Source: Shigella phage TB004. From it: a DNA stretch of 64,000 nucleotides. The stretch lies in sequence record MW822011; one strand, given 5' to 3'. Of this stretch, positions 53,225 through 56,232 are shown one piece after another (the first letter of the stretch is position 1; every line of letters starts with the position of its first letter). Under the pieces are notes generated by a model. It was not told the DNA's origin. It made no database searches and worked only from the letters and a program-made list of their open reading frames with translations. A program made the translations under genes and the position numbers.

Positions 53225-53243
<19 letters not shown>
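52875..53243 (+). CDS. small membrane protein, family member 4
   Basis: 122 aa from MGYQPVKP; two hydrophobic helices; C-terminal NFITECRKLK. Confidence 0.55.
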
Positions 53244-54210
<967 letters not shown>

Positions 54211-54214
54211 AGTT

Positions 54215-54244
54215 GTTTACTTTCTCCTAAAACTGTGATAGTAT
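54215..54244 (+). promoter_or_regulatory. T4-type early promoter upstream of ipIII
   Basis: GTTTAC ... TGATAGTAT. Confidence 0.5.
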
Positions 54245-54281
54245 ATTCACAGTTACTAATTAAAATATTTAAAGGAAACAC

Positions 54282-54849
54282 ATGAAAACCTATAAAGAAT
54301 TTATCGCTGGAAAAGGCCAAAGGCATTAATAAAGATGAGTGGACTTACCGAGGAAACGGCTTTGACCCTAAAACAGCCCCTATTGAACGATACTTAGCTA
54401 CAAAAGCTTCCGACTTTAAAGCTTTCGCTTGGGAAGGACTTCGCTGGCGTACCGATCTAAATATTGAAGTTGATGGGCTTAAATTTGGCCATATTCAAGA
54501 TGTTGTTGCTAGTAACTTGGATGCAGCTTTTGTTAAAGCTGACGGTGACCTTCGTCGCTGGAATTTAAAACTATTCTCTAAACAGAAAGGCCCGGTGTTT
54601 GTGCCTAAAGCTGGTAAATGGGTTATTGATAATAAATTAGCTAAGGCTGTCAACTACGCTGGTCTTGAATTCGCCAAGCATAAATCATCATGGAAAGGTC
54701 TTGATGCAATGGCCTTCCGTAAAGAATTTGCTGATGTTATGGCTAAAGGCGGCTTTAAGGCAGAAATAGATACCTCTAAAGGTACGTTTAAAGACGCTAA
54801 TGTTCAGTACGCTTACGCTGTTGCTAATGCAGCCCGTGGTAATTCTTAA
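54282..54849 (+). pseudogene. ipIII: internal protein III gene, apparently frameshifted after codon 9
   Basis: CTS MKTYKEFIA in frame 3 stops after 15 codons (54327-54329); body (…EKAKGINKDEWTYRGNGF…ARGNS) open in frame 1 from 54286; consistent with one extra G at 54309/54310. Confidence 0.7.
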
Positions 54850-54957
54850 TAAAGCCGAGTTCGAACCCGGTAATAGATAAATATAGAAACAGACAATTCG
54901 CACGCATGAATTGTCCCAAACTTAAAGAATAAAACTATTTACATTTAAAGGAAACAC

Positions 54958-55260
54958 ATGAAAACATATCAAGAATTTATTACTGAAGCGCGAGTGAGTG
55001 CAGGTAAATTAGAAGCCGCTATAAATAAAAAGGCCCATTCATTTCACGATTTGTCCGATAAAGACCGTAAGAAACTTGTAAGCCTTTATATTGACAAAGA
55101 GCGTATTCTCGCTCTTCCTGGCGCTAATGAAGGTAAACAGGCCAAGCCTTTGAATGCTGTCGAAAAGAAAATTGATAACTTTGCTTCTAAATTCGGTATG
55201 TCTATGGATGACCTTCAGCAAGCGGCTATCGAAGCAGCTAAAGTAATTAAAGGTAAATAA
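54958..55260 (+). CDS. ipII: internal protein II
   Basis: 100 aa, CTS MKTYQEFITE|ARV. Confidence 0.8.
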   Translation: MKTYQEFITEARVSAGKLEAAINKKAHSFHDLSDKDRKKLVSLYIDKERILALPGANEGKQAKPLNAVEKKIDNFASKFGMSMDDLQQAAIEAAKVIKGK

Positions 55261-55262
55261 CA

Positions 55263-55292
55263 GTTTACTTTCTCCTAGAATTGTGATAGTAT
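55263..55292 (+). promoter_or_regulatory. T4-type early promoter upstream of denV remnant
   Basis: GTTTAC ... TGATAGTAT, near-copy of the ipIII promoter. Confidence 0.5.
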
Positions 55293-55317
55293 ATTCATAA
55301 TTACTTGGAGGGGTAAA

Positions 55318-55541
55318 ATGACTCGTATTAATTTGACTTTAGTATCTGAACTTGCTGATCAACATTTAATCGCGGAATACCATGAATTGCCGCGTGTTTT
55401 TGATATAATTCGTAAACACGCGGCAAATGGAAAAATGATTATAATCCATGCAAATCAGCTATTAAGTTGAGTCAACAACGACTCGATGAAAAAATTTTAA
55501 TGAAGCCGCATTGGTATAAGTATTACGGCAAAAATATTTAC
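55318..55541 (+). pseudogene. denV: denV (endonuclease V, pyrimidine-dimer glycosylase) remnant with internal deletion and frame change
   Basis: N-terminus [28 protein letters not shown] then stop at 55468-55470; C-terminal homology SQQRLDEKILMKPHWYKYYGKNIY in a different frame; about 190 bp of the middle missing relative to the 138-aa T4 enzyme. Confidence 0.75.
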
Positions 55542-55692
55542 ATTCAAATAACATGGGAACAAGCTGGACCTCATGATTCTGTGAGGGATTCCCGCCAACC
55601 TGTAATAAGGTCGAGCCCAAGTGCGGTAATGGGTAAATACAGAAATGGACAATTCATGCGCCACGGAATGGCCCAAATTTAGAGATAACAAA

Positions 55693-56232
55693 ATGAGAAC
55701 ATTTTTAACTGGTCCTTATCTATCCCTGATGAATGCTTTTACACACCATTCTGATGCTAGAGTAGAAGAAATTTGTAAAAATGATTATATCCCACCATTC
55801 GAAGACTTACTCAAACAGTATTGCACACTTCGACTAGATGGTGGACGTCAATCCGGTAAATCAACTGCAGTAACTAATTTTGCCGCTAATTGGTTGTATG
55901 ACGGTGGAACAGTTATTGTTCTTTCTAATACTTCAGCTTATGCTAAAATTTCTGCGGGCCACATTAAAAAAGAGTTTTCTCGTTATTCTAGCGATGATAT
56001 TCGATTCCGCTTATTTACCGATTCTGTCCGTAGTTTTATCGGTAATAAAGGAAGCAAGTTCAGAGGTTTATCGCTTTCGCGGATTTTGTATATAATCGAT
56101 GAGCCTGTTAAATCTCCTGATATGGATAAAATTTACGATATTCATATTGAAACTGTGCACCACTGTTGCAATAGTAAATGCTGCATTGGTGGTATTACTC
56201 GTCCACAGTTTTTCATAATCGGAATGCAATGA
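55693..56232 (+). CDS. small P-loop NTPase-like protein
   Basis: Walker A GGRQSGKST and Walker B-like LYIIDEP; start at MRTFLTG. Confidence 0.55.
   Translation: MRTFLTGPYLSLMNAFTHHSDARVEEICKNDYIPPFEDLLKQYCTLRLDGGRQSGKSTAVTNFAANWLYDGGTVIVLSNTSAYAKISAGHIKKEFSRYSSDDIRFRLFTDSVRSFIGNKGSKFRGLSLSRILYIIDEPVKSPDMDKIYDIHIETVHHCCNSKCCIGGITRPQFFIIGMQ

Follow-up and report, generated by a model that had tools for sequence, protein, structure and literature searches.

A probable denV pseudogene in Shigella phage TB004, with a 187-bp deletion at a five-base microhomology

Between ipII and vs.8 in the genome of Shigella phage TB004 lies a reading frame that begins as denV, the gene for endonuclease V, and stops after 50 codons. 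The locus raises the question of whether denV has truly been lost in this phage and, if so, how the gene was broken and what its loss would mean for the repair of UV damage. The window analysed is a 64,000-nt stretch of sequence record MW822011. Around denV it is a Tequatrovirus segment in the order nudE–e–ipIII–ipII–denV–vs.8, all on the plus strand and in the same order as in T4 and phage JE01. Here nudE occupies 53225–53680, e (lysozyme) ends at 54210, ipIII extends up to 54849, ipII spans 54958–55260, and vs.8, with a start at 55645 or 55694, runs to 56232 and is followed by vs.7 and vs.6/grcA. The closest relatives among 50,697 phage records are about 95% identical across some 83% of a 19-kb stretch, so that the phage itself is not one of those records.

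The signals for expression of denV are in place. An intact Shine-Dalgarno sequence, GGAGGGG, lies at 55307–55313 on the plus strand, with the ATG 4 nt downstream, and aligns with GGAGAGG or GGAGGGG of intact alleles. Farther upstream, at 55263–55305 on the same strand, is a repeat (GTTTACTTTCTCCTAGAATTGTGATAGTATATTCA...; direct repeat D1) that is conserved in all relatives and has a 91% identical copy upstream of ipIII at 54215–54257. From its position and its resemblance to T4 early promoters we presume that it serves denV as an early promoter; it was not picked up by a simple sigma-70 scan.

The coding sequence that follows is in two pieces. A tblastn search of the window with T4 DenV (138 aa, from NC_000866) matched only residues 1–41, to 55318–55440 in frame +1 (33 of 41 identical, E 7e-18), and residues 99–137, to 55425–55541 in frame +3 (22/39 identical, E 1e-11). 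The two matches are collinear and in different frames. The first-pass annotation had described denV as internally deleted and frame-broken and had proposed the comparison with T4; these matches, together with a single gap in the DNA alignments, bear out the description, and the N- and C-terminal peptides that it quoted are correct.

The open reading frame that starts at the denV ATG, 55318–55470, encodes 50 residues and ends in a TGA at 55468–55470, where the earlier annotation had also placed the stop. It scores 24.4 bits against the Pfam family PF03013 (Pyr_excise), for which the cut-off is 23. Its authentic part, which tblastn, PF03013 and the alignments all place at 55318–55430 on the plus strand, consists of codons 1–37 and the first two bases of codon 38, and represents the N-terminal arm and helix 1, including Thr2 and Glu23. 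The remainder, given by the ORF coordinates as 55431–55470, is an out-of-frame tail: the third base of Gly38, 12 nonsense residues, and the TGA. Codons 100–138, with helix 3 and the WYKYYG motif, are found by tblastn and by alignment at 55428–55544 on the plus strand; they lie in frame +3 and thus are not translated from the denV start.

At 55545–55547 the former stop codon, TAA in JE01, ZCEC14, D5505 and VIPECOOM01, is now CAA, so that frame +3 continues to a TAG at 55680–55682 and forms a 71-aa ORF. No copy of this ORF was found in a collection of 15 billion proteins, and it has no Pfam match. A remnant span of 55318–55682 had been proposed; its start stands, but the last denV codon is at 55542–55544, and 55682 is the end of the read-through ORF, which falls inside a conserved intergenic repeat.

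What separates the two pieces is a single event. DNA alignments were made with six intact alleles of the same type (JE01, ZCEC14, UGKSEcP1, D5505, VIPECOOM01 and slur07) and with two contigs of independent assemblies that carry intact denV (SRR11551375 and ERZ11474004). Against all eight, the window has exactly one clean gap with perfectly aligned flanks; the “about 190 bp” first estimated as missing is precisely 187 bp, comprising codons 39–99 plus 4 nt. In the 417-nt denV of JE01 and ZCEC14 the pentamer AATGG occurs at nt 109 (Asn37-Gly38) and again at nt 296 (Glu99-Trp100), 187 nt apart. A single AATGG is kept at the junction, 55426–55430 on the plus strand, and the breakpoint can be placed anywhere inside it. 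Extended, the two endpoints match at 8 of 10 positions (AAATGGTAAA versus GAATGGAAAA).

Such coincidence is rare. In the JE01 and ZCEC14 genes all 67,025 possible internal deletions of 50–399 bp were enumerated, and only 0.7–0.8% of them have a microhomology of at least 5 nt. Since AATGG stands at both ends in the intact alleles and microhomology of this length is seldom expected by chance, the junction bears the marks of slipped mispairing or of recombination mediated by microhomology. Microhomology is a documented route of deletion in T4, in which accessory genes are lost via 6–10-bp repeats (PMC9391042).

These features lead to the reading that we prefer, at a probability of roughly 85%: the locus is a genuine denV pseudogene, derived by microhomology deletion from a JE01-type ancestor. 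The ancestor would have carried an intact 417-nt denV at the canonical site between ipII and vs.8. The two pentamers would then have mispaired by slippage or recombined through their microhomology, with the loss of codons 39–99 and 4 nt and the retention of one pentamer. Promoter, ribosome-binding site and ATG survive and can yield at most a 50-aa peptide made up of the N-terminal arm, helix 1 and the 12 nonsense residues. The deletion has taken out helix 2 together with the central conserved block, and helix 3 with its WYKYY motif is out of frame. The deletions in denV of other relatives (the stump shared by SP1, W143 and N2, and that of phage G8, both described below) also lie on microhomologies, and are counted as support for this mechanism.

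Because the junction is supported by one assembly, it might instead be an artefact of assembly or sequencing, or the assembler might have picked a deletion variant that formed a minority in a mixed stock; the real denV would then be intact. No phage record shares the deletion junction: megablast and blastn searches of the 50,697 records with the locus and with a 101-bp probe gave only two-piece matches spanning the additional 187 bp. The exact junction 21-mer, GGCAAATGGAAAAATGATTAT, had no match in IMG/VR or in GTDB genomes, and its two matches in JGI metagenomes are both chance occurrences in unrelated genes. The exact 50-aa product is recorded from only one NCBI contig, of 169,805 bp. The neighbouring ipIII is also broken, by an 11-bp deletion unique to this phage; this might point to poor sequence quality in the region or to heterogeneity of the stock.

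Against an artefact, assemblers collapse long repeats rather than 5-bp ones, and the gap is clean, with flanks in perfect register. Every one of the large essential genes in the window is precisely as long as in T4: gp23 (521 aa), gp18 (659), gp7 (1032), gp6 (660), gp10 (602), gp12 (527), wac (487), gp17 (610) and gp5 (575). The assembly is thus not generally error-prone. The microhomology signature is moreover typical of biological deletions (PMC9391042). We regard an artefact or stock variant as improbable.

A different origin had been suggested by the first reading of the sequence, namely that homologous recombination between flanking repeated cassettes remodelled the locus. Repeats are indeed present in the region. 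They include the 43-nt promoter-type repeat at 54215 and 55263, a 43-nt leader repeat of the internal-protein (IP) genes at 54267 and 54943, and an intergenic repeat of about 85 bp at 54846–54935, after ipIII, and at 55601–55690, after denV on the plus strand; the two copies of the last are 77% identical and both intact. Among relatives, recombination of this kind has evidently rearranged denV and IP genes, and the last 16 nt of denV (AATATTTACATTTAAA) are identical to an IP-gene leader. The endpoints of the deletion, however, are 108 nt and 295 nt from the ATG, at AATGG and both within the denV ORF, whereas the repeats lie outside it and are undamaged. All of the repeats, and the order ipIII–ipII–denV–vs.8, are as in T4 and JE01. 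Had the 85-bp copies recombined, ipII and denV would have been deleted wholly. Remodelling through the promoter, IP-leader and 85-bp repeats is therefore hardly credible, and the microhomology deletion is retained as the explanation of the junction.

Several observations on the intergenic sequences can be set beside this comparison. The element between denV and vs.8, 55551–55690, is nearly 100% identical in T2, T4, JE01, SP1 and W143, and is conserved above the flanking genes. The final 85 bp or so of this element are what recurs after ipIII. The T4 annotation counts it as the N-terminal part of vs.8, but in most other records vs.8 begins farther downstream. Neither the 85-bp element nor the element downstream of denV has an Rfam match, and the fold z of 0.5 gives no signal. 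After ipIII, at 54891–54916, a hairpin with a 9-bp stem has its 8-nt loop inverted relative to JE01 and W143: the sequence here is GACAATTC-GCACGCAT-GAATTGTC, and in JE01 and W143 it is GACAATTC-ATGCGTGC-GAATTGTC. The flip of the loop produces the inverted repeat I3 with 55647–55660. A likely recombination joint is the 3′ end of JE01-type denV (AAAAATATTTACATTTAAA), which shares homology with the IP-gene leader (repeats D6/D7, at 54931 and 55530).

The consequences for the protein can be judged from structure. For the T4 enzyme, experimental structures are available (2END, 1VAS and others). An AlphaFold2 model of an intact database protein (P0001), 98% identical to JE01 DenV, has a pLDDT of 93.4 and contains helices at residues 14–36, 56–59, 64–80 and 108–124. 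Helices 56–59 and 64–80 fall within the deletion, and helix 108–124 is out of frame. The alignment of 65 family sequences has 38 invariant columns. Fifteen of these are deleted (L52, G53, G55, H56, V57, F59, F60, Y61, K63, L67, R70, E77, R81, I85 and P97), and a further 5 of the 38 lie in the untranslated 3′ part. Similarity to PF03013 is present, but a single uninterrupted ORF of about 135–145 aa over the whole domain is absent; the C-terminal helix 3 and WYKYY are encoded in frame +3, 3′ of the TGA of the ATG frame, and are not joined to the N-terminus.

The remnant cannot adopt the fold of the T4 enzyme and, to judge from its sequence, its product cannot be a pyrimidine-dimer glycosylase. 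What it keeps are the N-terminal elements (MTRIN...) Thr2 and Arg3, together with Glu23, L24, P25 and Arg26; the α-amine of Thr2, and Arg3, Glu23 and Arg26, are catalytic elements of T4 endonuclease V. Annotation pipelines may call the 50-aa ORF “endonuclease V”; the label would be wrong.

The survival of Thr2, Arg3, Glu23 and Arg26, and of promoter, Shine-Dalgarno sequence and ATG, invites the thought that the remnant is newly functional, either as a 50-aa DNA-binding or AP-lyase peptide or, by recoding, as a frameshifted fusion of the N- and C-terminal parts. Yet the 50-aa peptide has no homologues outside its own genome, and the 71-aa ORF is missing from the protein collection and matches no Pfam family. 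Neither a slippery site nor a conserved structure was found at the locus, and a fusion would still be without the 15 invariant core residues. A new function is thus extremely unlikely, and a denV pseudogene remains the preferred interpretation of the remnant.

The remnant bears few marks of prolonged decay. The 230 retained bases contain two private changes, one non-synonymous (G29D) and one synonymous (CAC>CAT). Column 29 is Gly in 114 of 120 homologues and Asp in none. It follows from the small number of private changes that the deletion may be recent, and may even be a laboratory-stock variant.

Other differences were considered as marks of private decay and rejected. His22, Asp29 and Ile31 were lacking in a first set of 120 homologues, in which Gln occupies position 22 in 15 sequences. 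On wider sampling R22H, V31I and loss of the stop were each found in intact genes. The presence of His in place of the catalytic Arg22, offered earlier as a further sign of inactivation, is correctly read (CAT); as evidence of decay it fails, the same CAT being found in the intact 138-aa denV of SRR11551375 and ERZ11474004. Ile31 is also present in intact ZCEC14, and Ala35 (V35A) in slur07. The CAA at the former stop codon recurs in UGKSEcP1, where denV is intact, and in the stumps of SP1, W143 and N2; sequence comparison thus shows a polymorphism in circulation rather than decay private to this locus.

Those three phages provide a close parallel to the present allele, and also a caution. Their stumps are of the same allele type, occupy the same site between ipII and vs.8, and carry the same kind of lesion, an internal deletion at a short direct repeat, along with the CAA. 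They differ in having lost 347 bp between GACTCG repeats, leaving ATGAC|TCGATG..., and in having a TAC>TAA nonsense mutation. Each of the three, moreover, pairs its stump with an intact second denV beside e.

The stump in the window might likewise be real and without effect on phenotype if an intact denV lay elsewhere in the genome; the window covers 64 kb of about 170 kb. Within it, tblastn with T4 DenV gave no further match better than E 0.1. The site between e and the IP gene that holds the extra copy in the relatives is here a 72-nt promoter spacer, and in the records inspected denV always lies within the interval from e to vs.8. A compensating second copy is therefore very unlikely. It is still the case that, because stump and intact copy coexist in SP1, W143 and N2, the UV sensitivity of TB004 is something that we infer rather than observe.

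With this reservation, the phage would be without its own base-excision repair of cyclobutane dimers. Its sensitivity to UV in the dark should be about that of T4 v− mutants or of T2, a prediction that rests on established knowledge of T4 denV. Recombinational repair should remain, since the window carries undamaged genes for UvsY (137 aa) and UvsW (501 aa). The predicted loss of excision repair of UV dimers bears on survival in sunlight and on the handling of therapeutic or biocontrol preparations under UV.

Comparison with T4 and T2 places the allele between an intact gene and a vanished one. T4 denV (gene v; PF03013; structures 2END and 1VAS) is the same gene at the same site, ipII–denV–vs.8, and its first 38 and last 39 codons are recognisable here. 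The JE01-type protein is 78% identical to that of T4, but the allele in the window is without codons 39–99 and is frameshifted, and so does not qualify as a functional member of the family. T2 is also a natural Tequatrovirus without a working denV; it retains no trace of the gene, whereas both ends survive in the window. A tblastn search of the complete T2 genome (AP018813) detected no DenV, and the syntenic site is occupied by a different IP-type gene, which adjoins the conserved downstream element. T2 is the classical v-deficient T-even phage, and the absence of DenV agrees with its reported lack of v function. Streisinger in 1956 and Harm in 1963 are said to have found T2 to be the more UV-sensitive phage.

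A further loss is seen in phage vB_EcoM_G8 (NC_054915), in which a C-terminal stump of residues ~96–137 is all that is left of the gene, the record containing no detectable intact copy. Its junction, too, is at a microhomology, AATTATG[A/T]C, with the deletion running between AATTATGAC and AATTATGTC. The G8 stump differs from the present one in its e-proximal site, its T4-type allele, and a larger deletion that begins directly after the ATG. Experimental evolution of T4 (Srikant et al. 2022; PMC9391042) yielded deletions of 0.7–6 kb at 6–10-bp repeats, which compensated for gene amplifications. Those deletions likewise kept one repeat and removed non-essential genes of the same region (ipIII); here the deletion is of 187 bp at a 5-bp repeat, with no known amplification linked to it.

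Loss of denV is already known in the genus. The present locus is a case of ordinary gene decay and extends a known class by one new allele. Taken with T2, G8 and the stumps of SP1 type, it is one more independent case to show that denV, located in the plastic region from e to vs.8, is dispensable and has repeatedly been lost or relocated; across these cases short microhomologies are the usual route of loss. In a protein-mode search a near-full-length DenV match was obtained in 1,062 of 1,114 matching records, leaving 52 without one. At least four independent losses can be counted: T2, G8, the stump common to SP1, W143 and N2, and the window.

It is conceivable that denV is lost not only repeatedly but non-randomly in Tequatroviruses, driven perhaps by trade-offs in headful genome size or by dark, gut-associated niches. 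We regard this proposal as unlikely. If it were true, the break in ipIII would mark a lineage that is shedding accessory genes of the hyperplastic region, and the presence or absence of denV would be an ecological marker and not noise.

The site of denV itself varies in Tequatroviruses, the arrangements being e–denV–IP, e–ip–denV–vs.8, e–denV–vs.8 or IP–denV–vs.8. D5505 has e–denV–vs.8, N2 has e–denV–ipII–stump–vs.8, and slur07 has e–ip–denV–ip. By comparison of these sequences, recombination at repeat boxes has clearly moved denV in the relatives. In slur07 and in contigs SRR11551375 and ERZ11474004 denV is chimeric, with a T4-like 5′ end and the rest JE01-like. The denV of UGKSEcP1, with CAA for TAA, is annotated as 183 aa, extends 45 codons into the conserved intergenic element, and has a private D119Y substitution. 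A 746-bp ENA contig (P0122) encodes a truncated 32-aa DenV N-terminus (…RVFGYSS*), consistent with a 1-nt insertion after codon 29; it is either another disrupted denV or a metagenome sequencing error.

The genes on either side of denV have peculiarities of their own. The frame of ipIII is broken at 54283–54330 by the 11-bp deletion (AAGCTTCTGTG, directly after codon 9) relative to JE01, T4, SP1 and W143, a deletion seen in no phage record. The product would be MKTYKEFIAGKGQRH*, with the capsid-targeting leader severed from the body of the gene, and a further, in-frame 3-bp deletion follows. T4 requires IPIII for infection of E. coli ECOR17 (PMC9391042). On the other side, T2 vs.8 (AP018813, 61757–62429) is shorter by two separate 2-bp deletions than its counterparts in T4, JE01 and the window, and its annotation is limited to an ORF of 57 aa; it resembles another pseudogene beside the missing denV, unless sequencing errors are the cause. 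In the window, vs.8 (55645–56232) contains a Walker-A-like motif, GGRQSGKST, and has weak Pfam matches to the AAA and Terminase_6N families (E 0.01–0.04). Some records call its product a large terminase subunit; a P-loop NTPase, as yet uncharacterised, is the probable identity.
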